This document shows, piece by piece, positions 15,406 to 38,730 of a stretch of 60,472 nucleotides of DNA (position 1 is the first letter of the stretch; each line of letters starts with the position of its first letter). The stretch covers positions 1 to 60,472 of the forward strand of contig JAFQFI010000008.1 in assembly GCA_017398655.1 (NCBI GenBank). The letters run 5' to 3'. The notes under the pieces are model-generated. The model was not told the origin of the DNA. It made no database searches and was given only the letters and a program-made list of their open reading frames with translations. A program made the translations under genes and the position numbers. The DNA comes from Clostridia bacterium. GTDB taxonomy: Bacteria; Bacillota; Clostridia; Christensenellales; UBA1242.

Positions 15406-16755
15406 TTATAGTTCTAAATCTTCTATTTTTTCAATCAAAACATCTCTATTCCACAGTTCGACTTTATTAACTTTAGCCAATTTTATTGCTGACGGAGTAA
15501 AATAATTATTTGTAACAACCATACACTTGTCAGCTTTATAGTATTTCATACCAGCAACAGCTTCCATTATTGCATGATTTCCAACTTTGTTATTATAACA
15601 TTTTGCTTGAATTGCGATTTTCAAATCATTTTTCTCAGCTATCACATCTATTCCTTGGTCATTACTTGCTTTGGTAATTTTCGTTTGATAACCCATATTT
15701 TTAAATAAATCAGATACGCAACTTTCAAACTCTTTACCAGACATTACATCTATATCAACAATAGAAACTGAATCTTTCTCTTTTTCTTCTTTTAACAAAT
15801 CGTTTAAATATTTTTCTGCATGTATTTGATTTTCGATTAAATCTAATTTTTCTTTATAAATTTCACTTGCTATATCCATATTTTCATTTTTATAAATTTC
15901 TTTAGAAAATAAAATAAAAGTAATTTCTTCAATTAACAAATTTTCTCTTCTTAATTTTTTTATTATATTTTTTTCATTTTCTTCATTTATTAAAAATTCA
16001 TATTTTTTACAAAAATTGTTTATATAATTATTTTTAATTTCATTATAAAATCTTTCATTTAAAAGTAAGAAAAAGGCATCTTCTGTATTTTTATCTCCTT
16101 CAATAACACCTTGTGTTACTAAGGCATCATAAAATTGACGCAATTCCCTACATTCAAATCCACCCTTATCAAATTGATTAGCACTAAAATGTTGTTTTTT
16201 TAAAATAAATCGAGACTTAATATCAAAAGATAAATTTATATCTTTTTCTGCTATAGTTACTATTTCCCAATATTCTAAAAATCGATTAAAAGTTTGTAAT
16301 GGAGGAATTTGAATATCTTCCTCTTCATTATTTTCATGTTTAGTTAATTCCTTAAATTTCTCTAACTCTTCTTTTAAAATCAATGGCTTGTAGTTATTTC
16401 CAAAATTATTAATCTTAACACTTGGCATTGCTATACTATCAACATTCTTGTATAAAAAAATATCTAAATTTTCTCTTTTAGAAAAAAATTTTGCTAAATA
16501 TTGATTTAATTTATCATTTTCACACAAATTAACATACTCTTCTAAAATATCCTTGAATGTGGATATATTTTTAATTAATTCTTCATTTTCAATCTTTAAT
16601 CCTTCTTTATTTAATTCTGGAGAATTAAATTTATCTATATCTTTTTTTTTCTTCTCATTTTTTAATCCCACTACAACATATATAATAGCGATTATAACCA
16701 AAGACACCAAAAAGATTACTGACCCAATTCCTGAAGCTCCCAATAAATTAACCAT
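15406..16755 (-). CDS. membrane-anchored protein with C-terminal Mrr-cat (PD-(D/E)xK) restriction-endonuclease domain
   Basis: 449 aa. N-terminal TM helix, a long K/E/N-rich middle region, and a C-terminal GKEFE...GIDVIAEK...IAIQAKCY block typical of the Mrr_cat fold. Confidence 0.7.
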   Translation of the reverse strand: MVNLLGASGIGSVIFLVSLVIIAIIYVVVGLKNEKKKKDIDKFNSPELNKEGLKIENEELIKNISTFKDILEEYVNLCENDKLNQYLAKFFSKRENLDIFLYKNVDSIAMPSVKINNFGNNYKPLILKEELEKFKELTKHENNEEEDIQIPPLQTFNRFLEYWEIVTIAEKDINLSFDIKSRFILKKQHFSANQFDKGGFECRELRQFYDALVTQGVIEGDKNTEDAFFLLLNERFYNEIKNNYINNFCKKYEFLINEENEKNIIKKLRRENLLIEEITFILFSKEIYKNENMDIASEIYKEKLDLIENQIHAEKYLNDLLKEEKEKDSVSIVDIDVMSGKEFESCVSDLFKNMGYQTKITKASNDQGIDVIAEKNDLKIAIQAKCYNNKVGNHAIMEAVAGMKYYKADKCMVVTNNYFTPSAIKLAKVNKVELWNRDVLIEKIEDLEL

Positions 16756-16890
16756 AAAAGTAAAACCTCTTTAATAAAAAGATAACATAGAATTAGATTT
16801 TTGTCATTTGATAGAATACTATTTTACTTTTGTAAATCAAAATATTGAAAAAATAGTTTCTATAAAACAATAAATAATTATACAAATAAT

Positions 16891-17964
16891 TTATTTTTTC
16901 TCTAAACCTTCTAATATTCTATGACACCTATCAAGTTGTTCTTTTACATATTTTGTTATTAAATTCGTAAACTTTTTTATTTTTGCAAAATAATTAGGAT
17001 ATGCTTTTTGCAAAGAAGCTATTGACTTTGCAGACACAAGAACAACATCTGTATTAATATCTTTATTTAATTCCAATTTTGCATAAGTTTTTATGGCTTT
17101 TTTTGTTGACTTTTCATCTTCATCAAAATATTTAATTTCCAAAGAAGGATTCATAGTTTTTAATTGAAGTAAATAGTACCCCGATTTATTATAATTTTTT
17201 TTACTATCAAATATTATTTTAACAGTAGCAAAAGTATATAATTTCTTAGTTAAACCATATTTTTTGTTTAAATTGAAAAACTCTCCAATTGTTTCTAAAT
17301 GTTTTTTTATGTCATCTATGGTCTTTATTTTTTTACACTCTTCTTCTTCAAATATCAATGAAGATAATCTAAAAAAATCAAGCCAAATTTTTTCACCTTG
17401 ATTAAATTTCAATCCGTTATTTGTGAACATACCTACAGATTCAACAGCTGTAGCCCATAAATGCTGCAGTCTTGTTCTTAGTTGAAGTTCTACAGAGATT
17501 TTGTCGTAGTTATTGTCTTTTATAAAATCATATATAAGGTGAATTCCTCTATATCCAGTGTCTTTATTCGGATTTTTTATATAATCTTTTTCTTTATTCA
17601 ATAAAAAATCTTCACTAATATTTAATATTGAGTCTCTAAAAGAATAAACTTCTTCTAAATTTGAAAAGATTACTCTACATCCTCCAAGATCTTGCATACT
17701 GCTTAATCTCATATTTGGATAACGCACCAGTTTATTTACTATGGTGTCTAACCTTTTTAATCTTTGTGCAAAAACAACTCCTTTACGAGTCCCTATAGCT
17801 CTTTTCAATTCTTTTGCCAATTTAATCATTGGATGAGCATGAACAGCTCTCCAGCGTTCCACAATTTTTAAATGTTCGTTGTTTTTTCTATCTAAAGAAT
17901 TCTTTGCTATTTCTTTTCCAATAATATCTATTTGATTTTTACTGTAAATAATATTTCTATCCAT
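16891..17964 (-). CDS. RelA/SpoT-domain nucleotide pyrophosphokinase, long single-gene form (toxSAS/CapRel-like)
   Basis: 357 aa. Synthetase motifs GGCRVIF, YRGIHLIY and ELQLRTRLQHLWA, no HD hydrolase domain, and a ~170-aa C-terminal extension of unknown fold. Confidence 0.7.
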   Translation of the reverse strand: MDRNIIYSKNQIDIIGKEIAKNSLDRKNNEHLKIVERWRAVHAHPMIKLAKELKRAIGTRKGVVFAQRLKRLDTIVNKLVRYPNMRLSSMQDLGGCRVIFSNLEEVYSFRDSILNISEDFLLNKEKDYIKNPNKDTGYRGIHLIYDFIKDNNYDKISVELQLRTRLQHLWATAVESVGMFTNNGLKFNQGEKIWLDFFRLSSLIFEEEECKKIKTIDDIKKHLETIGEFFNLNKKYGLTKKLYTFATVKIIFDSKKNYNKSGYYLLQLKTMNPSLEIKYFDEDEKSTKKAIKTYAKLELNKDINTDVVLVSAKSIASLQKAYPNYFAKIKKFTNLITKYVKEQLDRCHRILEGLEKK

Positions 17965-18028: not shown

Positions 18029-18077
18029 TGGTGGGCCACCGGGGACTCGAACCCCGGACCCACTGATTAAGAGTCAG
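18029..18077 (-). repeat. attL: displaced 3' portion of tRNA-Lys (49-bp direct repeat)
   Basis: Base-for-base identical to 32489-32537 (tggtgggccaccggggactcgaaccccggacccactgattaagagtcag). Confidence 0.9.
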
Positions 18078-18148: not shown

Positions 18149-18931
18149 TTATTTAAAAACCACAAGACCATTTTGTTGTACATGATATTGATTCTTCGAA
18201 TATATAGCTTTAATAAAGTCTTTTATATCAATACCTTTAAGGTGCCCTTCTTTATTTATTGTCACATTACAATTCTTTACATGAGCTCTCGACCAAGCCT
18301 TGCCTAAATTTATTGCATTTTCTTCAGAAATAATATCTTTTAGTAAATAAAAAACAGAATAACAATCATAAGACTTAACATTGTTCGGCATATTTAAAAT
18401 ATATTGCCTCGCGGATGAATCATGTGAAAGTAACGCAAAAATATCAGCGTCACCAATTCTATTTGCAATTGATATATTTAAAATTGTCATGATTTCCCCC
18501 ATGTTGTTTCCACTAGGTATATTTCTAACAATTTTATTCAACTGTATAATAAACATTTTTAACTTTGTTTCGTTCATACAAAGATTTTCTAATTGGCTAA
18601 AATAATTTTTATAAAAAGTATCACTTTTAGAAATTTCAATTGATATTTTACGAATCTCATCCAAAATAATATGTTTAATAGTTATATCATCAAAAAAATG
18701 CTTTAGGCCTTTTACAATTTCAAAATTGTCAACTATGCTTATTTTTTCTTCTTGATGATATTTATAAATTATTTTTAAAATATTAGGATTCTTTATTTCA
18801 TCAAGAACCTTTGAAACCATAATAAATTTATACGGAAGTTTTATAATTTCATCGAAAAATGTGGAAGAATTATTTTTTGCTTTTATTGTTTTATTTATAA
18901 AATCCGTATCTAAATATGCAACTTTACTCAA
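18149..18931 (-). CDS. PIN-like domain protein (putative nuclease effector)
   Basis: 260 aa with a TTG start overlapping the upstream stop by 8 nt. YLDTDFI, VLDEI and SHDSSA are spaced like PIN acidic residues. Tentative call. Confidence 0.4.
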   Translation of the reverse strand: MSKVAYLDTDFINKTIKAKNNSSTFFDEIIKLPYKFIMVSKVLDEIKNPNILKIIYKYHQEEKISIVDNFEIVKGLKHFFDDITIKHIILDEIRKISIEISKSDTFYKNYFSQLENLCMNETKLKMFIIQLNKIVRNIPSGNNMGEIMTILNISIANRIGDADIFALLSHDSSARQYILNMPNNVKSYDCYSVFYLLKDIISEENAINLGKAWSRAHVKNCNVTINKEGHLKGIDIKDFIKAIYSKNQYHVQQNGLVVFK

Positions 18932-19757
18932 CTGAATCTTTTTTAGTAATTTTTTTTAAAATTTCTTCCACTTTTAATTTTGTACTATTTGCTTTACTAT
19001 TACTGATAAACTGAAATTCCTCATTCTCACTTATGAGATAATCTAGATCATCCAAATCATAATAATTACTGCACTTTTGTTCCCATCTTTCAAAACGAAG
19101 TTTTATTATTACTTCATCTAATAATTTTATTGTCTCTTTGCCTATTCCTAAAAAAATTTTCAATTCTTTTTCACTGATTTTTTCTAATTCATATGCTCTT
19201 ATAACTGCAGTTTTATAAGGAACCATAAATGAATCCATTAATTTTTCAATATAAAAAACTTTTTCTTTTGATGTTTTTGGTTCTCTTTTACAAACAAGTT
19301 CAACCCTCTCTTTAGGCATTAGAAAACAAGAACTAAAAGCATTTGCCTTTTTATCGTTTATATTGCACTCAACTTCATTTGGATTATCCTTAAGTACATC
19401 TATTAAATTGTCATCCGTAGAATCTTCATGATTTTCTAGGAAATCAATAAAATGATAGAACTCATGAGCTAATGCTACATTTTGTTTGTTCATTGGAAAT
19501 TCTGAATTTATAACAATGAAAAATATTCCAGATATTTTATAAAACATACCCCATACTTGATCATCGTTAAAAGGAAGATATAATATTTTTAAACAAACAT
19601 TCTTTCTTTCTGCATATTCCTTTATAAATAATTTAAGATTATAAGCAATAGGTGTTAATTCTGAAATATTATAAAGAATCATGTTAGCTTTTTTTTCAAT
19701 ATCTCTAAATAAACTTTTATCAGAATAAAACAAACAATCTTTGATTTTAATAGACAT
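18924..19757 (-). CDS. ImmA/IrrE-family (M78, COG2856) zinc metallopeptidase
   Basis: 277 aa with the HExxH motif ALAHEFYHF. Its ATG directly abuts the stop of the upstream XRE gene, and the SD AAGGAGG lies inside that gene. Confidence 0.7.
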   Translation of the reverse strand: MSIKIKDCLFYSDKSLFRDIEKKANMILYNISELTPIAYNLKLFIKEYAERKNVCLKILYLPFNDDQVWGMFYKISGIFFIVINSEFPMNKQNVALAHEFYHFIDFLENHEDSTDDNLIDVLKDNPNEVECNINDKKANAFSSCFLMPKERVELVCKREPKTSKEKVFYIEKLMDSFMVPYKTAVIRAYELEKISEKELKIFLGIGKETIKLLDEVIIKLRFERWEQKCSNYYDLDDLDYLISENEEFQFISNSKANSTKLKVEEILKKITKKDSVE

Positions 19758-20108
19758 TTATGCCTCCTTATTATCATTTAAGTATTGTTGTTCAACAATA
19801 ATATCTGATAACTCAAAAATCAATTCAAAAGTTTTATTTGTCTCTTTTTTTGTAATCTCTCCCATAAGTTGAGCAGAAACTTTTTCTTTTAAAACTTTTC
19901 TTTGTCTTGTCAAATCTTCTATTTTACATGAAAAAAAATTAGCAATCTTTGCAAATTCGCTTGCTAATAAATTTCTCTTTCCTGCTAAAATTTTATTTAC
20001 TGTTTGTCTTGGCAAATCTAAAAACCTTCCTAGATCTGATTGTTTCTTCTTTTGTTTATTAAGTAAATCTAAAATATTTTGAGCAACCATTAAATCAAAA
20101 TTTTCCAT
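19758..20108 (-). CDS. XRE-family helix-turn-helix regulator
   Basis: 116 aa. QSDLGRFLDLPRQTVNKILAGKR is an HTH_3-type motif. Strong SD (AAAGGAGGG). Confidence 0.8.
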   Translation of the reverse strand: MENFDLMVAQNILDLLNKQKKKQSDLGRFLDLPRQTVNKILAGKRNLLASEFAKIANFFSCKIEDLTRQRKVLKEKVSAQLMGEITKKETNKTFELIFELSDIIVEQQYLNDNKEA

Positions 20109-20131
20109 AATTACTCACCCTCCTTTGGTAT

Positions 20132-20159
20132 TTTATATTAATTATTATGTCCTTGTCAA
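20132..20159 (-). promoter_or_regulatory. putative promoter of the XRE-ImmA-PIN operon
   Basis: TTGACA, 16-nt spacer, TATAAA on the minus strand just upstream of the SD. Confidence 0.4.
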
Positions 20160-20281
20160 TATTAAATATGCAAAATGTAACTAAATTAGTGACAAATGTA
20201 CATAAAAATTTCTTATTTAGAAGACATTTTTTAGTAAAAAAATTTTAATATAATCTAATAATTACTTCAATCTTTAGTGAC

Positions 20282-20320
20282 AAAAAAAATAAATCCAAAG
20301 ATTTTTTGGATTTATTTTTA
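20282..20320. terminator. bidirectional terminator downstream of the kinase gene
   Basis: Hairpin AATAAATCCAAA-N6-TTTGGATTTATT with A- and T-runs on either side. Confidence 0.65.
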
Positions 20321-20476
20321 AATATTTTCTTTGATTAAATCTCTATTTAATCTAAATATTAGATAACAAAATCAATTATAAAATTACATCAATTATAGAA
20401 AGAATTAAAAATCAGATAAAGTCTCTTATTAAGTCACTTATAAAGTTCAGTACAAAAATTTTAAAATTGTGTTTCA

Positions 20477-21610
20477 TTAAAAAGGCAAATCTTCATCTAT
20501 TTTAACTTTTACTTTAGACAATTTTGCTTTTATACTTTTTATTACAATTTCTTGAAAATGCCTATCTTTTCTTTCAAACCAATTTAAAAAATCTTTAACC
20601 AATGCTGTTTCTATTCTTATGCCATTTGAATATGCATAATTATTTTTCACAAAAATCGATATTAGACTGGAGTTTTCTATTAAAACATTCTCCAAACAAT
20701 TTTCTTCTAATAAATTCTCTAAACCGTTTATTATTTCATCAACATTATCGTTAATCTTTTGTTCTGAAGAATGGTGATCTAAAGCCAAAATCATGCTAGA
20801 TGAAAAATTTAAATAAATTTCTTTGTCTTTTTCTGTTATATCTAATCTTGTTAACTCTTTATGGTTTATTTTATTTAAAATATCTTCAAAAGAAGCAAAC
20901 CTTTTACTAGGATCAGTTTCCAACATCTTATTTAAAATTGTTTTATACTCAAAATTGTTTAAACTATTTTTTTTCAAAAGTCTACTAAACAATTCTGCAA
21001 GACAAAACATATCTGTTTTTGACGTGTATTTCCCTACATTTATTTCAGACGGTATTTTTTCCATTCCTCTTCTATCTATAACTTTATTTAAGCTATCTTT
21101 AGACATTGATGATTCAGAGAAATCTTTTCCCAAACCAAAATCTATTATTTTTACAACGCCATTTTTGTCAATCATAATATTATTTGGTCTAATATCTCTA
21201 TGAATTATGTTGTTTTTTTCTAAACAATTAAAGGCGTTAATTAATTGTATAAAAATTGAATTCGCATCAATTTCAATATCTTTTTTTGATAGATACTTGT
21301 CAATAGTTTCTCCGTCAATGTATTCCATTAATATAAACCCAGCATTGTATTCATCATATAAATAATAATTATAAATTCTCACTATGTTTGGATTATTAAG
21401 TTTGTACATTATTTTTATTTCTTTTTTAAACATATCATAAAAATATTTTATATTTACACCTTCTTGAGGAAGATATTTTTTACATACAAAAAGTTCTTCT
21501 AGAGAATTATCCCTTAGTAAAACTGTTTGCCCACAAGAACCTTTACCTAATTTTGCATTAACCATTGTATAACTTTTTGTCTTTATAAAATTAATTATTT
21601 CGTTTTCCAT
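20477..21610 (-). CDS. Hanks-type Ser/Thr protein kinase with unknown C-terminal domain
   Basis: 377 aa. Has LGKGSCGQ (G-loop), VCKKY, HRDIRPNN and IIDFGLGK motifs, followed by ~125 aa of unknown function ending in DEDLPF. Confidence 0.8.
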   Translation of the reverse strand: MENEIINFIKTKSYTMVNAKLGKGSCGQTVLLRDNSLEELFVCKKYLPQEGVNIKYFYDMFKKEIKIMYKLNNPNIVRIYNYYLYDEYNAGFILMEYIDGETIDKYLSKKDIEIDANSIFIQLINAFNCLEKNNIIHRDIRPNNIMIDKNGVVKIIDFGLGKDFSESSMSKDSLNKVIDRRGMEKIPSEINVGKYTSKTDMFCLAELFSRLLKKNSLNNFEYKTILNKMLETDPSKRFASFEDILNKINHKELTRLDITEKDKEIYLNFSSSMILALDHHSSEQKINDNVDEIINGLENLLEENCLENVLIENSSLISIFVKNNYAYSNGIRIETALVKDFLNWFERKDRHFQEIVIKSIKAKLSKVKVKIDEDLPF

Positions 21611-21640: not shown

Positions 21641-21680
21641 AAAAAAAGAGACTCAAGTATTTTTTTAAGTCTCTTTTTTT
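21641..21680. terminator. bidirectional terminator between the replication-like gene and the kinase gene
   Basis: Hairpin AAGAGACT...AGTCTCTT flanked by A- and T-runs. Confidence 0.6.
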
Positions 21681-22512
21681 ACAAATCTATTTCATCTAAA
21701 TTATCAAAAAGCGATTCTAACTCTTCAGTTGTATAGTTCCTGGAGATAAAAGCTTTGCGTTCTTCTTTTTGGTTTGGTTGTTTATAATCATCATAGTATC
21801 CAGTTATAATTTTATGGTAGTTGTCCATTAAGAAATCAAAATCAATTCTTGGATTGTTCTGAAGAAATAAACTTTTATCCAAAGCTGCAAGAAGAGAATC
21901 ACATTTAAAACCTACAGGAAGTAGTGTTAATCTATCCACTTTAAATCTTGGATATTTTTCGAATAAAGGAACAAGTCTCTCATCTATACTACAATTTATA
22001 TTACTACTATAATTATTATCTTTTTGAGTGTCTATTTCTATATTATATATACTACTAATATTATTATTTTTAGTATTTATATTATAATATGTTAACCAAC
22101 TTGGACATTTTTGACCAAGTTCACTTGCCAACTTGGACATTTTTGACCAAGTTAGAAGTAAAAAATATTTTTTCACTCCAACTGTTTCACTTTGCTTTTT
22201 AGATAGAACGTGGAGAGATTTTTTTGTAAGACAGATATTTATACCTGCAAAAAGATTTTGTTTCTTAAGATAACCGGCATTTACAAGCTTTGAAATTAAA
22301 CGTTTTAATTGTTTAACTTCAATGTTTAAAATTGGAAGTGCTTCAAGAACTTCTCTATAATTAAACGTTTTAAAAAGAGAAACTTCTTGGCCAGAAACAA
22401 ACTCTTCAGATATTATTGACTTGGAGAAATAAAAAAGCAGCAATAGTTCGTTTGCTGACAATTTATCTTTTAAAATTATTCTTTGTTGATAATCAAAAAC
22501 GTAATCCCACAT
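21679..22512 (-). CDS. winged-helix replication-initiator/replisome-organiser-like protein
   Basis: 277 aa. N-terminal wHTH-like segment, N/S/I-rich linker, acidic C-terminus, and internal DNA iterons. The functional call is an inference. Confidence 0.35.
   Translation of the reverse strand: MWDYVFDYQQRIILKDKLSANELLLLFYFSKSIISEEFVSGQEVSLFKTFNYREVLEALPILNIEVKQLKRLISKLVNAGYLKKQNLFAGINICLTKKSLHVLSKKQSETVGVKKYFLLLTWSKMSKLASELGQKCPSWLTYYNINTKNNNISSIYNIEIDTQKDNNYSSNINCSIDERLVPLFEKYPRFKVDRLTLLPVGFKCDSLLAALDKSLFLQNNPRIDFDFLMDNYHKIITGYYDDYKQPNQKEERKAFISRNYTTEELESLFDNLDEIDL
22096..22153. repeat. two identical 26-bp iterons, each with an internal dyad (candidate origin)
   Basis: ccaacttggacatttttgaccaagtt occurs at 22096-22121 and 22128-22153. 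Each copy contains the dyad AACTTGG-N10-CCAAGTT. The 32-bp period is not a multiple of 3. Confidence 0.7.
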
Positions 22513-22571
22513 AAAAAACCCTCTAATTTTTCGCGTAGTTAAATTAGGGTATTGATTTTAATACCCTTTTT

Positions 22572-22789
22572 TTATAAAAAAGTCGATTTTAAAGCATTTT
22601 CGAGTGCTACGCACACAAGAGCTGAACAGCGTTTTTCTAATCGGATTTTCGATAATATATTTGCTCGTCCATACTCTTGCATACATATCGCACTACAGCA
22701 ACAGGTAGCCCCATTTTGACCCACAGGGGCTAAAGCCGATCCTGTGGGTAAATAAATCAAAATGGGGCATTAACAAAGTTGCTGTAGTG
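22572..22789 (-). other. GC-rich structured non-coding block (candidate ncRNA, packaging signal or single-strand origin)
   Basis: Nested perfect stems of 12, 12 and 8 bp span 22691-22789. More small hairpins lie at 22572-22690. The composition is clearly more GC-rich than the surroundings. Confidence 0.55.
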
Positions 22790-22946
22790 TATCCCTCGTT
22801 ACCAGTTTTTCTAATTCTGTTATCTTTCCCAAGGTTGCTTTCAATATTACCTGTTTGTTGATTTTGTCAGATTTGTAAATTCCTACTTTTACCAATCTGT
22901 CAACTTCTTTCCTGCAGACCTTTCTTTCTTGAGATATTTCAGCCAT
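22770..22946 (-). CDS. small hypothetical protein (58 aa)
   Basis: ATG with AGGAGA SD. Translates to MAEISQERKVCRKEVDRLVKVG... It is below the ORF-track length cutoff, and its 3' end runs into the 5' arm of the hairpin. Confidence 0.45.
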   Translation of the reverse strand: MAEISQERKVCRKEVDRLVKVGIYKSDKINKQVILKATLGKITELEKLVTRDTLQQLC

Positions 22947-22958
22947 ATTTTTCTCCTT

Positions 22959-23261
22959 TTATTTTAAAATTAAAGTGAAAATAATAAAAATAGCAGTTAT
23001 TGCTAAATATAAAAAAATAATGAGTTTTTGTAACATTACTAATAATATATTTTTAGTTCTTTTTGCTTTAGTTAACATAATAAGAGAAGTAATAAAGCCA
23101 ACTACTAAAGTAAATAAAGCGTATGGCAGTAAAAATATTGACCCTAAAACGTCACCAGTTTTAAATGGTAAAATATTAGTAATTGGCAAAATAATTCTGA
23201 CTGAAAACGCCAAGCAAACAACTTCTATTAAAAAACCAATTAAAGATAATATTTTTCTCAT
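22959..23261 (-). CDS. small multi-pass membrane protein
   Basis: 100 aa from the ATG at 23261, with an AAGGAGA SD. About 3-4 hydrophobic helices. Confidence 0.6.
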   Translation of the reverse strand: MRKILSLIGFLIEVVCLAFSVRIILPITNILPFKTGDVLGSIFLLPYALFTLVVGFITSLIMLTKAKRTKNILLVMLQKLIIFLYLAITAIFIIFTLILK

Positions 23262-23293: not shown

Positions 23294-24754
23294 TTAAGCC
23301 AATTTTTTGACCTTGTAAGCCCTGTTTATAATTTCTTGGTTAAATAGTTGTTTTATTTCATCTTCGCTTAAAACGGGTGTTTTAAAGGTCTCTACGCTGG
23401 CAGATTGATATTGACAAGCATATAAATTTCTAAAAGTTCGGTCATCATAAAAACAATTTAAGTTTGGTGGTAAAACAAAAGATTTTACACGAGAGCCAAT
23501 TTGACCTTTATTTCCAACTTCAAGGTTTCCATAATCTTCATACTTGAATTTTCTAAAACCAACTGAATTAACATAAGTTCTTAAATCGGATATAATTTTT
23601 ACTTTAGTGTCTGTAGGTTCATAATTTTGAATAAACTCTTCAAGCCAAGAAACAATCCAATCTAATAGATAAGGTTTTAAAACGTGTTTTTGTTCTATCA
23701 TTTTTTTATTTTCTGCTGTAACACGTCTTGCAGAAATTAAAGTAGCATTTCCGTCTTGTTCTGTAGAAACTAATCTAAAATCCTTATACTGTCTTGTAAA
23801 TCTAAACATGTGGTCTATCAATTGGATTTTATTATTAGAAAGTTCTGGTGGAAGCATTGAACCAATTTCGTCCAAGAAAGCAACGCCTTTATATAAAAGT
23901 TTACTTTTTTGTAGTAGGTGATCTGCTGTAAATTTACAAGCAGGTTTTCCGTCTTTAAAAATTGGAATGTTACTCCAGAAACAAGGAATGCAATCGTTTT
24001 CGCTATAAAACTCATAAGCTTCAACAACTTCTATTACATGTTTTATTTTGACTTCATCTCCGGTGTACTTCCTTTGATATTCGACAATTGGAAAACCTTT
24101 TTTATCAAGGCCGATAACTTTATGTTCCAAATGAGTTCCAGAATAAATCCTTATTATTTTATTTTCCAACTTCCAATATTCAAATTGAAGATTTTTCCAT
24201 AATTTATCTGCAATTTCAATTGAGTCGTATATACCTGAAGACGACTTTCCTGCTCCAGGTTCTCCCATTCTTAAAACAACGTATTTTGACATACTTAAGT
24301 TTTCAGAATGTGATATTACAGATAGTTCATAAAATTCGTTAGAAACAAAATATATAAGGGTGAAAAAAGTCGCAACTGCTAAAGGAATAAAAAGTATTAG
24401 TTTTTTAGCTGTAAATCCAAAAGATGAAACATAAAGAATATCTAAAAGCAAAACTATAATAAATTCAATCAAATAATGAAAACGTGCTAATTTTTGAAGA
24501 AAAGATTTTTTTACTTTAAAAACCAAAACTTTATCTATTAAGTTTTCATCGTCTTCCGGTTCTGGTTCATAAAATTTTGTTTGAGCTTCTTCTTTCTTTT
24601 TAAAATACTTTGCATAATCTCTCCAGTGCTGGAGGGCAAATAAATCTTCTTTTAAATGTTTATCTGCCAACTTCCAACGCTGTTTTGTTTTTTGATTACC
24701 TTTGTATTTTGAATATGTTAATAATTTAGGTTCTGAATAAGTTAATAACTCCAC
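23294..24754 (-). CDS. membrane-anchored P-loop NTPase, Zot-like
   Basis: Probable GTG start at 24754 after GAGG. Two TM helices are followed by Walker A GEPGAGKSS, Walker B AFLDEIG and FRFTRQYKDFRLVSTEQD, resembling the Zot/pI family pattern. Confidence 0.55.
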   Translation of the reverse strand: MELLTYSEPKLLTYSKYKGNQKTKQRWKLADKHLKEDLFALQHWRDYAKYFKKKEEAQTKFYEPEPEDDENLIDKVLVFKVKKSFLQKLARFHYLIEFIIVLLLDILYVSSFGFTAKKLILFIPLAVATFFTLIYFVSNEFYELSVISHSENLSMSKYVVLRMGEPGAGKSSSGIYDSIEIADKLWKNLQFEYWKLENKIIRIYSGTHLEHKVIGLDKKGFPIVEYQRKYTGDEVKIKHVIEVVEAYEFYSENDCIPCFWSNIPIFKDGKPACKFTADHLLQKSKLLYKGVAFLDEIGSMLPPELSNNKIQLIDHMFRFTRQYKDFRLVSTEQDGNATLISARRVTAENKKMIEQKHVLKPYLLDWIVSWLEEFIQNYEPTDTKVKIISDLRTYVNSVGFRKFKYEDYGNLEVGNKGQIGSRVKSFVLPPNLNCFYDDRTFRNLYACQYQSASVETFKTPVLSEDEIKQLFNQEIINRAYKVKKLA

Positions 24755-24755
24755 A

Positions 24756-27062
24756 TTAAACCTCAAATTCAATAGAATCAATTGTTAATGATGTCACTTT
24801 TCCATCAGTAAAACCTACAGGATTTTCTTCACCAGAAGCGTAAACTTTATTTATTTTTTCATACGATTTTACATAGATTTCTAAAGAATTAGTATCTAAA
24901 TCAATTTTTGCAGAAAAATATAGTGGGAAATAATAATAAGTAGAATCATTATACTGTTCGTTAAAAACTCCCATATAAGCAAAACTTTTAGCTAATAAAG
25001 GAACTGTAACTAATTCATCTAATTTATAAAGACCACTTTCTTCATCAAAAGTTAAATTTAAATCATAATCAACTGATTTATTTACACTATAACTATTTAT
25101 TTTTGTATAAGAAGAACCAAAAGTTTTCACATAATTTACCGTTTCAAGATAATAAGAACTAATATTTATAGCAATATTTTTAAAATCAGTTATAGGTTGC
25201 TCCAAAGAAGATAAATCAACTGTGAAAGTTGTATATGTGGAATAATTACCAGTTCCACTAAAAGCAGTTCCATATGTTAAAGTTTTTGATGCAATTTTAT
25301 AAATTGGATAAAAATCAGTATCTGAAGTTATTGCTATTGTTGAAATATCTATTACTGTTTCTTGATCTGTTGACCAACCAACAAAAACATATCCTGTTCT
25401 ATCACTTAAGATAGGTGTAACAGAGTATTTGTCTGTTTCAATAAGTTGAGTTTCTAAAATTACTAATTCTTCATTTTCATCATAGCCATAGAAATTAACA
25501 ACGTTTAATCTTTCAAATTCAGCAATATATGTTGTATGGCTTGTAATTGCTTCAGATAACACGTCTGTTAATATTCCATTCTTTAACCAGCCATTAAATT
25601 TATATCCGTCCTTTATTGGCTCTGCAGGAAGTTCTGGATAATGATTTAATTCAATTATTTGAGAATTATGTATATCTTCACTATCCTCATCAAGTTTGAA
25701 TATAACGTCAAAACTATAAGTTATATTTGCAACTAAAACAGTATCTGCAACAATTGGTGTTGTTGTTATATCAAATACAACATCATTTGAGTACCAACCA
25801 TTAAATTTCCTGTAAACACTACTTTCAACTTCAATTTCTGAAGCGTACTCATTATTTCTTACAATTTGAGTGTCTTGAGTAGTATCTTCATAAATAAAAG
25901 TTACTGTGTGAAGTTTTGTAAATACAGCTACAAAAATTGTATCTTGTGTTATTTGAATTTCTGTAGGATTTACTTTATCAACACCATTCAAAGACCAATA
26001 GTCAAACTCATATCCGTCTTTTACTGGCTCTGCAGGAAGTTCCGGATAATAATTAAGTTCTATAATTTGAGAACTATGTAAATCTTCATCTACTTTAAAC
26101 TTAACATCATATCTGGTTGTTATATCAGCATAAAATGTTGTATTTGCAGAAAGTGGATAAGAACTTAATTCAACTTCTTGTTTTTCTCCGTCAACTTCAA
26201 CGTACCAATAATTGAAAGTTACATATTCAGTTGATTCTGGATTAACAAGTGCAGGTGTAGTTCCTTTATTAATTACTTGAATGTTATAAACGCTATTATT
26301 AAAATAGAACGTTGCAACAACTTGATTTTCGTTTTCTAAATTTTTGATATATTGTTCATAATATTCAATTGATTTTTTTAAGCTTTCAACTTCGTTTTTA
26401 AGTGAAGTTAAAGCTGCAGAATTATTTTCTGAAGCAGTTGTCATTTCAGAAATTTGTTTATTTAAAGTTTCAATTTGTAAATTCATATTTACAATTGTTT
26501 GAGTGTTTAAATCATTGGTTGATTGTAAAGAAGCATTTACTGTTTGAAGATTTGAAATTTGTTTCTGAAGTAGCTCTATTTCTTCAGATTTATCTTCATC
26601 ACTTGCTTTAAGTTTTGTAACTTCATTTTTTAAATTTGAAATAGTTACTTTGTTTTCTGCAATTATTTTTTCATTTTCAGCATTAATTGTTTCTAAAGAA
26701 AGTACTCTATTTTGATAAGTATTTCTTTCACTTGTTAACGTTGAAATTTTAGTTTGATATTCCCAATTATTGTCTGTTAATACTTTAATTTGAGATTGAG
26801 AATCTGCTATTTCTTTTTCATAAGTTGCTACAAGTTTTTTATAGTAACTTTCATTATTCTTGGCGTCAGAATAACCGTCATTGTAAGCATCAGAAGTTAT
26901 TTCATCTACTTGTGTTTGAGTATAAATAGAACTTCCTTTTATAAGAGCAAATAACCCCTCTTTATTATTAAAAGTCCACCAAACACCAAAAACTAACGCT
27001 CCCACAATCAGTACACAAACCAAGGAAAAAGCTATGCTTCTTGCGTTCTTATTTTTTTCCAT
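24756..27062 (-). CDS. N-terminally anchored surface protein: coiled coil plus repeated P.P.K.GY.F.GW (Listeria-Bacteroides-repeat-like) domains
   Basis: ATG at 27062 after GAGGAGG. TM helix, ~200 aa of heptad-like sequence, then repeats such as YPELPAEPVKDGYEFDYW and YPELPAEPIKDGYKFNGW. Confidence 0.6.
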   Translation of the reverse strand: MEKNKNARSIAFSLVCVLIVGALVFGVWWTFNNKEGLFALIKGSSIYTQTQVDEITSDAYNDGYSDAKNNESYYKKLVATYEKEIADSQSQIKVLTDNNWEYQTKISTLTSERNTYQNRVLSLETINAENEKIIAENKVTISNLKNEVTKLKASDEDKSEEIELLQKQISNLQTVNASLQSTNDLNTQTIVNMNLQIETLNKQISEMTTASENNSAALTSLKNEVESLKKSIEYYEQYIKNLENENQVVATFYFNNSVYNIQVINKGTTPALVNPESTEYVTFNYWYVEVDGEKQEVELSSYPLSANTTFYADITTRYDVKFKVDEDLHSSQIIELNYYPELPAEPVKDGYEFDYWSLNGVDKVNPTEIQITQDTIFVAVFTKLHTVTFIYEDTTQDTQIVRNNEYASEIEVESSVYRKFNGWYSNDVVFDITTTPIVADTVLVANITYSFDVIFKLDEDSEDIHNSQIIELNHYPELPAEPIKDGYKFNGWLKNGILTDVLSEAITSHTTYIAEFERLNVVNFYGYDENEELVILETQLIETDKYSVTPILSDRTGYVFVGWSTDQETVIDISTIAITSDTDFYPIYKIASKTLTYGTAFSGTGNYSTYTTFTVDLSSLEQPITDFKNIAINISSYYLETVNYVKTFGSSYTKINSYSVNKSVDYDLNLTFDEESGLYKLDELVTVPLLAKSFAYMGVFNEQYNDSTYYYFPLYFSAKIDLDTNSLEIYVKSYEKINKVYASGEENPVGFTDGKVTSLTIDSIEFEV

Positions 27063-30386: not shown

Positions 30387-30545
30387 ATCCAGAGAAAACG
30401 GTAAAGAGAGCAAAGTTCTCTCTGGATATATTTACGAGTTTTTCGTAAATATTACTTTAATATTTACAATATTTTCGTAAATAGTCAAGTGTTTTTACGA
30501 AAATGTTGAAATTATTTTAATTTTTTTTACAATATTCTCGAATAA
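30387..30545. promoter_or_regulatory. divergent switch region: dyad hairpin plus four phased operator-like repeats
   Basis: TTTAC(G/A)A half-sites start at 30431, 30463, 30494 and 30526. O1 is a perfect 8-bp-arm palindrome (ATTTACGA-N5-TCGTAAAT). A 9+3-bp dyad lies at 30387-30427. Confidence 0.6.
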
Positions 30546-31415: not shown

Positions 31416-32375
31416 ATGCCAAATTATAGAAAAAGAAAAAACGGAATATGGGAAGGAAGACAATACATAAATGGGAAAAGTTTTTCTGCATATTCCAAAA
31501 ACCTTAAAACATGTAAACAAAAATTAAAAGAAAAAATTTCAAATATAACATCAAATTCATTAAATAAAAATCTGCTTGTAAGTGAATGGTTTTTAACCTG
31601 GGCTGAAGTTTACAAACAAAAAAATCTTAAGATAAAAACATTCAACTCTCTTTTAGGTTTAATTAAAAATCACATAAATAAACTATTCAGGAACATATCT
31701 TTACAAAATTTAACCGGGGATATAATTCAAAAAAAATTAACAGAACTAAAACCAAGCAGAACCACCAACCTAATTTGCACGTATTTAAACGCCGGGTTAG
31801 AAAAAGCTTTACAACTTGGTTATATAAAAAGAAACCCTTACAAATCAACTGAAATAAAAAAACATAAAGTTGGCAAAGGTAAAGCTTTTACATACCAAGA
31901 GCAAGTAAAGATAGTAAACGAAGTTATTGGTTCTGATATTAAAGATTTGTTTTTTATTTATGTTTTAACCGGGATAAGAAAAAACGAAATTTACAACATA
32001 ATCAGTTTTGATTATGAAAAAGAACAAATAAAAGTTATTAGAGAAAAGAGTGATAATAAAATAAAAACAATCTTTGTTAAAAAAGAAGTTATTTCAATAA
32101 TTGAAAATTTGCAGCTAACAAAAACTTCAAGTGATGTTTTTTATAAAAAATTCAAAAAGATTTTAAAACGTTTAAACGTTACCGGAACAGTCCATTCCTT
32201 AAGACACACTTACGCAACAAATAATTATTATCTTGGAACTCCAATAAAACATCTGCAACAGTTTATGGGGCACGAAGATATAGCATTAACTTACAATATT
32301 TATACTGATTTTGATGAAGAATTAACAAAAGAAAAAATTGTTAAATTATATAATAATTTATATTACACTTTTTAG
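31416..32375 (+). CDS. int: tyrosine recombinase (phage-type integrase)
   Basis: 319 aa. C-terminal HSLRHTYAT...GHEDIALTYNIYT fits the R..H-x-x-R..H..Y catalytic pattern. Adjacent to the att site. Confidence 0.85.
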   Translation: MPNYRKRKNGIWEGRQYINGKSFSAYSKNLKTCKQKLKEKISNITSNSLNKNLLVSEWFLTWAEVYKQKNLKIKTFNSLLGLIKNHINKLFRNISLQNLTGDIIQKKLTELKPSRTTNLICTYLNAGLEKALQLGYIKRNPYKSTEIKKHKVGKGKAFTYQEQVKIVNEVIGSDIKDLFFIYVLTGIRKNEIYNIISFDYEKEQIKVIREKSDNKIKTIFVKKEVISIIENLQLTKTSSDVFYKKFKKILKRLNVTGTVHSLRHTYATNNYYLGTPIKHLQQFMGHEDIALTYNIYTDFDEELTKEKIVKLYNNLYYTF

Positions 32376-32488: not shown

Positions 32489-32564
32489 TGGTGGGCCACC
32501 GGGGACTCGAACCCCGGACCCACTGATTAAGAGTCAGTTGCTCTACCAACTGAGCTAGTGGCCC
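32489..32564 (-). tRNA. tRNA-Lys (anticodon CTT); its 3' 49 nt form attR
   Basis: Reverse complement is GGGCCACTAGCTCAGTTGGTAGAGCAACTGACTCTTAATCAGTGGGTCCGGGGTTCGAGTCCCCGGTGGCCCACCA. It folds as a cloverleaf with CTT in the anticodon loop. Confidence 0.9.
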
Positions 32565-33975: not shown

Positions 33976-36402
33976 ATGTTAGATAAAAAATATGATTTTA
34001 AAACTGCCGAAAAGAAATGGCAAGAATATTGGCAACAAAACGGCACTTACAAATTTGATAAAGATAGTAAAAAACCAATTTATTCAATTGATACTCCACC
34101 ACCAACTGTTAATGGTAAAATTCACATTGGCCACATTTTTAGTTATAGCCAAGCAGAATTTATTGCAAGATACAAAAGAATGATGGGTTACAATGTTTTC
34201 TACCCATTTGGATTTGACGATAATGGCTTACCTACTGAGTTATTAGTAGAAAAAGAAAGGGGCTTAAAAGCATATACAGTTTCTCGTGAAGAATTTTCAA
34301 AAATGTGTATGGAAACTGTTGATAAATATGAAAAGAGCTTTAAAGATTTATTTATCTCTGTTGGTAACAGTGCAGATTGGTCACTTGCTTACCACACAGT
34401 TAGCCCAGATTGTCAAAAATCAAGCCAAATGTCTTTCTTAGACCTATACAAAAAAGGTAAAGTTTATTATGCAGAAGCACCAGCACTTTGGTGTACAAAA
34501 TGTGCAACAGCAATTGCTCAAAGTGAATTAGAAAGCGAAGAAAAAGAAAGTACTTTTAACTATTTAAAATTCTACATTGAAGGTAGCGATGATTATGTTG
34601 AAATTGCAACAACTCGTCCAGAACTTCTTTGTGCTTGTGATTGCATTTTTATCAATCCTAAAGACGAAAAGAATGCTCATTTGTTAGGCAAAAAAGTAAG
34701 AGTTCCATTATACAACTTTTATGTACCAGTAATGAGTGACGATAAAGTTGACCTTGACAAAGGTACTGGCGTTGTTATGTGCTGTACTTTTGGTGATCAA
34801 ACAGATACTCAATGGTTTAAAAAATACAACCTTGAACTTAAAGTTGCTATTGATGACTTAGGTCGTATGACAGCAATTGCTGGTAAATACGAAGGTATGA
34901 AAACAAAAGAAGCTCGTGCTGCAATTATTGAAGACCTTAAAGCAGAAGATTTACTTATTAAACAAGACCCTATTTCCCACCAAGTTTCTGTTCACGAAAG
35001 ATGTGGAACTGAAATGGAAATAAAACTTAAAAAACAATGGTTTATTAAAACTTTAGAAAATAAAGAAGAATGGATTAAAAAAGGCAACGAAGTTGAATGG
35101 CACCCAAGTTTTATGAAAGCCCGTTATATGGACTGGGTTGAAAACTTGATGATGGATTGGTGTATTTCTCGTCAAAAATACTTTGGCGTACCATTCCCAG
35201 TTTGGTATTGTAAAGATTGTGGTGAAATTATAGTAGCTGGCGAAGATGAACTTCCTGTTAACCCACTTACAACAAATCCAAAACATGCATGCCCAAAATG
35301 TGGTAGCAAAAATTACATTCCAGAAAGTGATATTATGGATACTTGGGCAACAAGTAGTATTACCCCACAAATCAACACAAAATGGAATGTTGATGACGAG
35401 TTTTACAAAAAGATGATGCCTATGACATTAAGACCTAATGCTCACGACATTATTAGAACTTGGGATTTTTACACAATTGTAAAATCTTTCTATCACTCAA
35501 ACTGCTTACCTTGGAAAAATGTTATGATTAGTGGCTTTATTATGGCAAGCCAAGGTCAAAAAATTTCAAAGAGTAAATCAAACTCAAAAAGCGATCCAAT
35601 TGATTTAATTAACACCCACTCTGCTGATGTTGTTAGATATTGGACAGCAACTGGTAGTTTAGGTAGAGATATTATCTTTAACGAAGATAAATTTAAAATT
35701 GGCGCAAGATTAACAAACAAAATCTTTAACGCAAGTAAATTTGTTTGGTTGTTCTTAGAAAATTATAAACCAAAGAAAAATACAAAATTAAAACCAATGG
35801 ATAAATGGATTCTTTCCAAATTCAATGAAATGAGAGAAAGATTTATCAGTTATTTTGAAAAATATGAAGTTGGTCTTGCAATGCAAGAACTTGAAAACTA
35901 TTTCTGGAACTTCTGCGATAACTACATTGAACTTGTAAAAGTAAGATTATATAATCCAGATATTTATGGCGAAGATGCAAAAGAAAGTGGACAATATGCT
36001 TGCTACCATGTATTACTTGAAATGCTTAAAATGTTTGGTATTTACCTTCCTCACATTACAGAAGAAGTTTATCAAAACACATTTAAAGATACAGTGGGTG
36101 CTCCTTCAATTCATAATATAGAATTAACTGCACTTCCTGTTGAAATTGACAAAGATTTAATTAAAAAAGGCGATGAAGTTTGTGATATAGTTTCTCAAAT
36201 AAGGGGCTATAAAACAGATAACAAACTTTCACAAAAAACAAAATTAACAAAAGCAACAATCACATCAAATAATACAGAGTTCTTTAAATCTGTAGAAGAT
36301 GATGTTAAAGCAGTTTCTTCTGCACAAGATATTGAATACCTTGAAGGCAACACTGCTGTTGAAATTGCAGGTTTTATTGTAGAAGAAAAAGAATCAAAAT
36401 AA
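33976..36402 (+). CDS. valS: valine--tRNA ligase
   Basis: 808 aa. HIGH-type GKIHIGH, editing-domain ATTRPE, and KISKS (KMSKS-type). Confidence 0.75.
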   Translation: MLDKKYDFKTAEKKWQEYWQQNGTYKFDKDSKKPIYSIDTPPPTVNGKIHIGHIFSYSQAEFIARYKRMMGYNVFYPFGFDDNGLPTELLVEKERGLKAYTVSREEFSKMCMETVDKYEKSFKDLFISVGNSADWSLAYHTVSPDCQKSSQMSFLDLYKKGKVYYAEAPALWCTKCATAIAQSELESEEKESTFNYLKFYIEGSDDYVEIATTRPELLCACDCIFINPKDEKNAHLLGKKVRVPLYNFYVPVMSDDKVDLDKGTGVVMCCTFGDQTDTQWFKKYNLELKVAIDDLGRMTAIAGKYEGMKTKEARAAIIEDLKAEDLLIKQDPISHQVSVHERCGTEMEIKLKKQWFIKTLENKEEWIKKGNEVEWHPSFMKARYMDWVENLMMDWCISRQKYFGVPFPVWYCKDCGEIIVAGEDELPVNPLTTNPKHACPKCGSKNYIPESDIMDTWATSSITPQINTKWNVDDEFYKKMMPMTLRPNAHDIIRTWDFYTIVKSFYHSNCLPWKNVMISGFIMASQGQKISKSKSNSKSDPIDLINTHSADVVRYWTATGSLGRDIIFNEDKFKIGARLTNKIFNASKFVWLFLENYKPKKNTKLKPMDKWILSKFNEMRERFISYFEKYEVGLAMQELENYFWNFCDNYIELVKVRLYNPDIYGEDAKESGQYACYHVLLEMLKMFGIYLPHITEEVYQNTFKDTVGAPSIHNIELTALPVEIDKDLIKKGDEVCDIVSQIRGYKTDNKLSQKTKLTKATITSNNTEFFKSVEDDVKAVSSAQDIEYLEGNTAVEIAGFIVEEKESK

Positions 36403-36512
36403 TTTATTAAAACAAAAAGAGTAAGTACAAAACTTACTCTTTTTTATATTAAATTGACATAATTATACATATATCTTAAAATGATTATGAAAAACATAAG
36501 GAGATAAAAATT

Positions 36513-38659: not shown

Positions 38660-38730
38660 AAAACAAAAAAAGAGTAAGTACAAAAACTTACTCTTTTTAT
38701 TATTAACCTTAAAATTTTTATATTTATTTT

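Follow-up and report, generated by a model that had tools for sequence, protein, structure and literature searches.

The DNA analysed here is a 60,472-nt contig of an uncultured Clostridia bacterium (JAFQFI010000008.1, assembly GCA_017398655.1; hereafter the window), which carries a 14.46-kb integrated element whose only sizeable non-coding gap, 257 nt in length, holds a long nested hairpin at 22691..22789 on the minus strand. The element is delimited by 49-nt direct repeats of the 3' part of a tRNA-Lys gene, located by repeat comparison: attL (18029..18077) marks the left end, and attR (32489..32537) the right end within the tRNA-Lys gene itself (32489-32564, minus strand), next to which lies the gene for the element's tyrosine integrase (31416..32375, plus strand), recognized by a domain match. 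Apart from the integrase and two helix-turn-helix (HTH) repressor genes beside it, the element's genes are all encoded on the minus strand, referred to below as the gene-sense strand. Their order begins with small membrane proteins, a 662-aa secreted and anchored protein with a signal peptide and a C-terminal anchor, and a 793-aa coiled-coil/Flg_new protein; it continues with a 495-aa membrane P-loop ATPase, a 101-aa membrane protein and a 58-aa basic protein, followed by the 257-nt gap and the gene for a conserved 277-aa protein. The gap thus separates the late genes, with their secreted and membrane products, from a conserved winged-helix gene, in agreement with a preliminary annotation of the letters alone (the sequence-only reading), which had placed the hairpin between a morphogenesis and a replication module.

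The hairpin was delineated by stem complementarity, folding and comparison with relatives, and the three nested stems proposed in the sequence-only reading proved exact in both coordinates and pairing. The outer (22691-22702/22778-22789, 12 bp), middle (22708-22719/22757-22768, 12 bp) and inner (22720-22727/22741-22748, 8 bp) stems are each 100% Watson-Crick, and an extra apical stem of 3 bp (22728-30/22735-37) closes a 4-nt TAAA loop. The structure is interrupted by a one-sided, AT-rich bulge of 8 nt (22749-22756), which reads TTTATTTA on the gene-sense strand. The RNA minimum free energy (MFE) of a 111-nt stretch covering these stems is -56.9 kcal/mol on the plus strand (z -9.9) and -55.5 kcal/mol on the minus strand (z -8.4), while folding with DNA parameters yields approximately -33 kcal/mol with a z-score of -9.5. 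None of 200 dinucleotide shuffles reached this stability, and in a sliding scan over 4,025 windows of 110 nt the hairpin emerged as the most stable fold of the 60 kb on either strand, with the four tRNAs of the window ranking behind it. The hairpin is far beyond chance, and the remaining inverted repeats of the window are ordinary terminator-type hairpins. The GC enrichment reported for the block is likewise real, if modest: the fraction is 0.45 in the hairpin window and 0.38 across the gap of 257 nt, compared with about 0.27 in the window as a whole.

To examine the hairpin in relatives, we compared contigs encoding homologues of the ATPase (48-97% identity), in which the gene order is kept. 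The hairpin recurs with the same layout in the corresponding gap of L001, L002, L004, L005, L007, L009, L010 and L092, that is, in every locus reaching that far, and its DNA-fold z-scores range from -6.6 to -10.4 across the resulting nine large-family loci (the window and the eight others). Stem sequences differ from that of the window in seven of the eight further loci; in the common layout, an outer stem (8-13 bp) leads through a small internal loop to a middle stem (9-12 bp), which is followed by a bulge and an apical stem (8-14 bp). This bulge is 8-9 nt long, AT-rich and confined to the 5' side (TTTATTTA, ATTTATAT, TATATTTTA and similar), with L005 as the one hairpin that lacks it. When helices are anchored on the bulge and pairs counted with our own script, every stem position displays two to four different Watson-Crick pair types, and 349 of 366 predicted pairs over all loci are Watson-Crick, the other 17 (4.6%) being G-T. 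Since the helices vary in length between loci, a combination of MAFFT and RNAalifold recovered the middle stem alone. Furthermore, the small open reading frame (ORF) upstream ends inside the structure in eight loci, so that the outer stem pairs a coding 5' arm with a non-coding 3' arm, which has changed along with it. From these sequence comparisons, the hairpin appears to be under selection for pairing and shape while its sequence is free to change. The outcomes that the sequence-only reading had named as speaking against a structured signal, namely absence of conservation, absence of covariation or translation in homologues, were all looked for: the shape is kept, the stems covary and the gap is uncalled in all loci. 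As an additional observation, the arms are skewed in composition at all loci, with 72% C+A in the gene-sense 5' arm and 76% G+T in the 3' arm, and the apical loop region of the window hairpin and its homologues keeps a GCYTTWRGC-like sequence.

A second conserved element lies downstream of the hairpin on the gene-sense strand. Comparison of the loci identified an origin-like motif at 22597..22630 (minus strand), which in gene-sense order comprises GCTG-TT-CAGC (22630-22621), CTCTTG (22621-22616), GTGC-GTA-GCAC (22614-22604) and TCGAAAA. Eight loci share the arrangement of a 3-4-bp mini-hairpin, CTCTTG, one to three nucleotides, a 4-5-bp mini-hairpin and (T/C)CGAA, positioned about 70-110 nt downstream of the long hairpin, and CTCTTG is invariant in all eight. 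Both mini-stems covary, the first as GCC/GGC, GGC/GCC or GCTG/CAGC and the second as GTGC, CGCC, GTGCC or GCGC, around loops that are mostly GTA, GAA or GTAA and closed by C-G; such 4-5-bp stems covarying around GTA, GAA or GTAA loops are present in 9 of 11 loci. The further short hairpins that had been noted at 22572-22690 do exist, with these two mini-hairpins flanking CTCTTG and, further down, a terminator-like hairpin at 22546-22567. The latter, with its T/A runs (22546..22575, strand not assigned), sits just upstream of the 277-aa gene, and similar terminator-like hairpins precede the homologues of that gene in L005, L010, L092, L097 and L100. Between the long hairpin and the origin-like motif, an AT-rich spacer (22631..22690, minus strand) was recognized from the sequences of the loci, and ATTGAAA(A) or ATTGAGAAA repeats recur in the spacers of the window (22631-22690), L002, L009, L010, L097 and L100, which may be binding sites for the winged-helix protein.

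Two further sets of loci bear on the nature of the element. The 55-nt terminal direct overlap of contig L005 (11246 nt) shows it to be a circular 11.19-kb copy of a related element, an episomal or replicative form that carries an integrase, a repressor and LRR_5 proteins. A second family, L097-L102, consists of compact elements of about 7-8.5 kb that share the winged-helix protein (277/340 aa) and the intergenic layout, together with a short ATPase of 287 aa that is weakly Zot-like and has an N-terminal Walker A; L098 harbors an integrase and an HTH gene between its 337-aa gene and its leucine-rich repeat (LRR) gene, where L101 has no integrase. A shorter hairpin of the same bulged layout is found in L097 and L100 (RNA MFE -27.2 and -31.0, with no z-score computed), and the motif that follows it reads as a mini-hairpin, TTCTTTAGGT, a CGCC-GAA-GGCG hairpin and TCGG, with TTCTTTAG in place of CTCTTG in this small family. 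The module of long hairpin and twin mini-hairpins thus travels with the winged-helix protein across two element families. Searches for it elsewhere were negative: DNA similarity searches against 50,697 phage records returned no match for the hairpin region of the window and only chance short matches for that of L010, while an exact scan of IMG/VR for the hairpin's conserved 18-mer gave two chance matches without a hairpin. An exact-pattern scan of IMG/VR for the CTCTTG twin-hairpin core gave 118 matches, approximately the chance level, none of which combines the full motif and an upstream hairpin in an AT-rich small genome; one of them, L144, proved unrelated.

Among the proteins encoded beside the hairpin, the 495-aa ATPase (23294..24781, minus strand; Walker A GEPGAGKS) offers a link to a known system. 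The window protein itself has no sequence match in Pfam, PHROG or the PDB, PDB sequence searches with the family profiles of the ATPase and the 277-aa protein retrieved nothing, and an NCBIfam search gave nothing useful. Its close relatives are rare, amounting to 14 clusters at 90% identity among 5.8 billion proteins; a protein-guided search of GTDB representative genomes with the ATPase and the 277-aa protein found no relatives, and a metagenome scan for relatives of the two yielded one short contig. In tblastn searches, the ATPase weakly matches 'Zonula occludens toxin' genes of classified Inoviridae, and hhalign comparison of its family profile with the Zot proteins of bajarodino viruses gives probabilities of 94.9% and 91.2% over the Walker A/Walker B regions. 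A full profile search added 238 more distant cluster representatives, and among ten of these that were sampled, P0037 passes the Pfam Zot cut-off and P0062 matches PHROG 197 (Zot-like). On this evidence, the ATPase is remotely related to Zot/pI, the ATPase with which filamentous phages assemble.

Two further proteins are encoded directly beside the gap. The 58-aa protein (22770..22946, minus strand), identified as an ORF and through homologues that adjoin the hairpin in L001, L002, L005 and L007, is basic and helical. The claim that its reading frame ends inside the 5' arm holds on the coding strand, where its last codons form the 22778-22789 arm; the stop codon itself (22770-22772) sits in the internal loop between outer and middle stems, and in plus-strand coordinates the arm in question is the 3' one. 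Across the gap, the 277-aa protein (21679..22512, minus strand) has nine homologues, some of them encoded by the small elements of the second family; their alignment reveals a strongly conserved N-terminus (MWEYIFDYQQR...LLFYFSK), and an AlphaFold2 (AF2) model places a winged-helix in this region. Foldseek comparison of the model returned MarR/ArsR-type DNA-binding domains as best matches (E of at least 0.013) and, as a weak match at rank 25, 4pql, deposited as 'N-terminal domain of DNA binding protein', which we take to be a RepA_N domain. The 277-aa protein is the best candidate for an origin-binding factor and, as such, a candidate initiator.

Taken together, the remote Zot ATPase, the tRNA attachment site with its integrase and the circular relative lead us to treat the element as inovirus-like. 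Inovirus prophages with tRNA attachment sites and tyrosine integrases are known (Roux et al. 2019, PMC6813254), and the element resembles them in its att repeat within a tRNA gene, its integrase, its pI-like ATPase and its small genome, while differing in the rarity of its ATPase family and in the N-terminal membrane extension of that protein. In bajarodino virus 71, a classified inovirus, it is again the gap behind the zot operon that contains the genome's most stable folds. In the Ff and Ike phages, a long intergenic hairpin of 22-24 bp serves as packaging signal; it follows the last assembly gene and precedes the origin (bioRxiv 10.1101/2023.12.30.573655). The present order is the same: assembly genes, a long hairpin, a CTTG/GNA motif and the next gene, with the hairpin placed in the main intergenic region, presumably on the gene-sense strand, of an element that encodes a Zot/pI-type ATPase. 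Indeed, all large-family loci that reach far enough display the ATPase, 101-aa and 58-aa genes, then the hairpin, then the CTCTTG motif and the 277-aa gene. The two systems have no sequence similarity, and the present hairpin differs from the Ff/Ike signal in its three perfect helices, its one-sided AT-rich bulge and the upstream stop codon inside it, as well as in a Gram-positive host and the lack of recognized coat proteins.

The origin-like motif has a counterpart of its own. In the Xanthomonas phage phiLf-UK, one stem-loop of the origin contains CTTG, the recognition and nick sequence of a superfamily-I Rep, the next has a GNA triloop (GCGNAGC) called 'extraordinarily stable', and the packaging signal is a hairpin distinct from both (bioRxiv 10.1101/2023.12.30.573655). 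GNA triloops closed by C-G have unusual stability in DNA (Yoshizawa et al. 1997, as cited in that paper). The element shares with phiLf/Cf-type plus-strand origins a conserved CTTG-containing sequence directly followed by a GNA-loop mini-hairpin; it differs in an additional mini-hairpin 5' of that sequence and in the replacement of CTCTTG in the small family. The phiLf/Cf-type origins are substrates of a superfamily-I HUH Rep, and none was found encoded here. CTTG/ATA sequences are also the nick sites of phiX174 and pC194.

We therefore propose, tentatively and granting it slightly less than an even chance, that the block is the intergenic control region of an inovirus-like prophage, integrated in an uncultured gut Clostridia bacterium of low GC, and that the hairpin is its packaging signal. 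In such a model, the excised element would replicate via a single-stranded intermediate with the strand of the gene sense, in which the 99-nt three-helix hairpin would fold to act as the morphogenetic (packaging) signal, marking the DNA end that enters an assembly machinery in the membrane, centred on the Zot/pI-like ATPase. The twin mini-hairpins around CTCTTG would form the core of the replication origin, with a nick at or near CTTG, the GNA-loop hairpin could provide a binding element of that origin and the adjacent winged-helix protein could act as the origin-binding factor. Strand preference is partly in line with this proposal: the gene-sense strand folds better as RNA in six of eight large-family loci and, as DNA, holds an advantage of 3-7 kcal/mol in L002, L007 and L010, because its T-G pairs become C-A mismatches on the opposite strand. 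The scarcity of G-T pairs and the C-GNA-G loops of the mini-hairpins further favor a role in DNA.

Several results weigh against this interpretation. In the two small-family loci it is the antisense strand that is more stable, and in metagenome run X1, which holds the element in full, the depth of the element equals that of its flanks, so that it is a quiescent prophage there. Neither element family, the complete circular L005 included, yielded an HUH or Rep_trans-type nuclease. The 277-aa family lacks a conserved histidine and hence an HUH motif, no nuclease motif was found in it, and the AF2 model of the 277-aa protein resolves the N-terminal winged-helix only (predicted local distance difference test, pLDDT, of 59). 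No major coat protein or single-strand-binding protein was recognized among the element proteins: several small membrane proteins and the 662-aa protein are present, none of them recognizable as a coat protein. The layout of the ATPase is unlike that of pI in that membrane helices precede the P-loop, and its AF2 model is of low confidence and gave no match in a Foldseek search. Finally, IMG/VR yielded no relative of the ATPase, searched as single protein and as family profile, or of the 277-aa protein, searched as a single protein. The likeness to filamentous-phage and rolling-circle hairpins drawn by the sequence-only reading thus stands as regards the intergenic position, the Zot/pI ATPase, the conserved shape and the CTCTTG/GNA motif, and fails to extend to a Rep nuclease or a coat protein.

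The same context evidence would also fit a minus-strand origin of the single-stranded form, resembling a plasmid single-strand origin (sso) or the Ff hairpins B/C, with host RNA polymerase or primase making a primer at the hairpin and the packaging signal located elsewhere or overlapping. We consider this unlikely, yet it is the alternative to be taken most seriously. Plasmid sso regions, which are found close to the double-strand origin, form large folds of about 160 nt whose orientation matters; they are active only when single-stranded and are primed by RNA polymerase (PMC5703833). The hairpin would resemble ssoA/ssoU of the rolling-circle plasmids of Firmicutes and the Ff hairpins B/C in being a large, orientation-dependent fold of the displaced strand near a double-strand origin. 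The AT-rich one-sided bulge and the apical GCYTTWRGC could, moreover, mimic a melted promoter or priming site. A promoter scan, however, listed promoters only elsewhere, with no convincing -35/-10 pair inside the hairpin, and the hairpin is far more regular than the known sso folds, which are longer and carry RS_B and CS-6 motifs not seen in it. The CS-6 motif of ssoA is TAGCGT; the window hairpin has the apical sequence GGCTTTAGCC and no TAGCGT, and only L009 has a TAGCGC. A more far-reaching possibility, to which we assign a somewhat lower probability still, is an undescribed filamentous-like phage lineage of Gram-positive gut Clostridia that replicates without a classical HUH Rep, using the winged-helix protein on a twin-GNA-hairpin origin and the three-helix hairpin as a new single-stranded DNA (ssDNA) signal that combines packaging with primer synthesis and is possibly read by the 58-aa protein.

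Alternatively, the hairpin could act in RNA, either in the 3' untranslated region of the late operon as an exonuclease block, RNase III site or element of read-through or translation control, or as a small structured RNA. The fold is equally strong as RNA, it lies on the transcribed strand with the upstream stop codon inside the structure in eight loci, and its G-U-compatible pairs favor the sense strand. In addition, the terminator scan returned sites only at 22546-22567 and 22438-22457, and since the first terminator-like hairpin thus lies downstream of the long hairpin, late transcripts probably contain the latter. Rfam, on the other hand, matches only the four tRNAs of the window at gathering score, and at a permissive threshold over 22400-23100 all matches are sub-threshold (E of at least 0.19), in line with the sequence-only reading, which had named no matching family. 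No U-run follows 22691 on the minus strand, which excludes an intrinsic terminator; G-U pairs at 4.6% are rare for RNA helices so diverged, and the linked mini-hairpins carry C-GNA-G triloops typical of stable DNA hairpins. A structured non-coding RNA, which had been judged equally possible, is now less so in view of the missing Rfam match, the DNA-type GNA loops and the phage-origin-like position, and we regard an RNA role overall as improbable.

Least probable among the explanations we retain is a function as double-stranded DNA, in which the hairpin would be a palindromic binding or cruciform site for the 277-aa or the 58-aa protein in theta-type initiation, partition or regulation, and the element might not be a single-stranded DNA phage at all. 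Inverted repeats are common as protein-binding sites, no rolling-circle nuclease was found, and the only conserved neighbor is a winged-helix DNA-binding protein, as in theta-type initiators, with 4pql among its weak Foldseek matches. Nevertheless, a duplex site gives no reason for arms as much as 75 nt apart, a conserved one-sided bulge, asymmetric loops or G-T pairs, and the stem sequence changes freely with pairing kept, which points to the folded strand, and not a recognition sequence, as the target of selection. Other candidates were rejected outright: a folded attP of the CTXphi or integron attC type, as integration occurs via the 49-nt repeats at tRNA-Lys, about 4.6 and 9.7 kb from the hairpin; a repeat element or miniature inverted-repeat transposable element, as the hairpin sequence is single-copy within the window; a coding sequence, as ORFs spanning the block lack conservation and no gene is called in the gap at any locus; a protelomerase site, as the palindrome is not perfect; a retron, for want of a reverse transcriptase; and a conjugative origin of transfer, as domain and family searches of the element proteins detected no relaxase, type IV coupling protein or type IV secretion system families.

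Filamentous-phage packaging signals and origins have been mapped for few phages, all of them from Gram-negative bacteria; we know of none for a Gram-positive host, and our search of the literature found no packaging signal or origin defined for a filamentous phage of such a host. Under the proposed packaging function, the hairpin would join the filamentous-phage intergenic signals with features of its own: its three helices are perfect, its AT-rich bulge is confined to one side, a stop codon is embedded in it and its 5' arms are rich in C/A. Together with the CTCTTG twin-hairpin, it constitutes a compact cis-module of about 200 nt that is clearly under selection and that provides a handle for asking whether these rare gut-Clostridia elements make ssDNA and virions. 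The module also allows a structure-based search for more such elements, which are hardly picked up at the protein level, and it could be used in building phagemid-type vectors for bacteria that resist manipulation. The analysis further points to the conserved winged-helix protein as a candidate unconventional initiator.

Beyond the intergenic region, the element and its surroundings present several additional features. An imperfect inverted repeat of 47 nt (30435-30540, 72% complementary), which separates the two divergent HTH repressor genes from the first of the late genes, is probably the operator or genetic switch region of the element. Cargo occupies the far end (18149-21610) and includes a eukaryote-type Ser/Thr protein kinase (20477-21610), a pair of HTH_3 and Peptidase_M78 (ImmA/IrrE-like) genes (18924-20108) and a 260-aa protein with no assigned function; L001, a relative at 97% identity, departs from the window in this region. 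Just outside attL, 15406-17964 encodes a RelA_SpoT-domain protein, similar to small alarmone synthetases, and a protein with an Mrr-type restriction endonuclease domain, which may form a small defence islet by the tRNA-Lys integration hot spot. The host is a low-GC bacterium with the standard genetic code, whose valyl-tRNA synthetase (ValRS; 33976-36402) is 81% identical to those of uncultured gut Clostridia metagenome-assembled genomes. The enzyme is of the archaeal type (NCBIfam PRK13208), and outside gut Clostridia its nearest relatives, at 44-49% identity, are from DPANN archaea, which suggests an old horizontal transfer. Lastly, two terminator hairpins at 36414-36444 and 38667-38698 have an identical 13-nt stem (AAAAAGAGTAAGT/ACTTACTCTTTTT).

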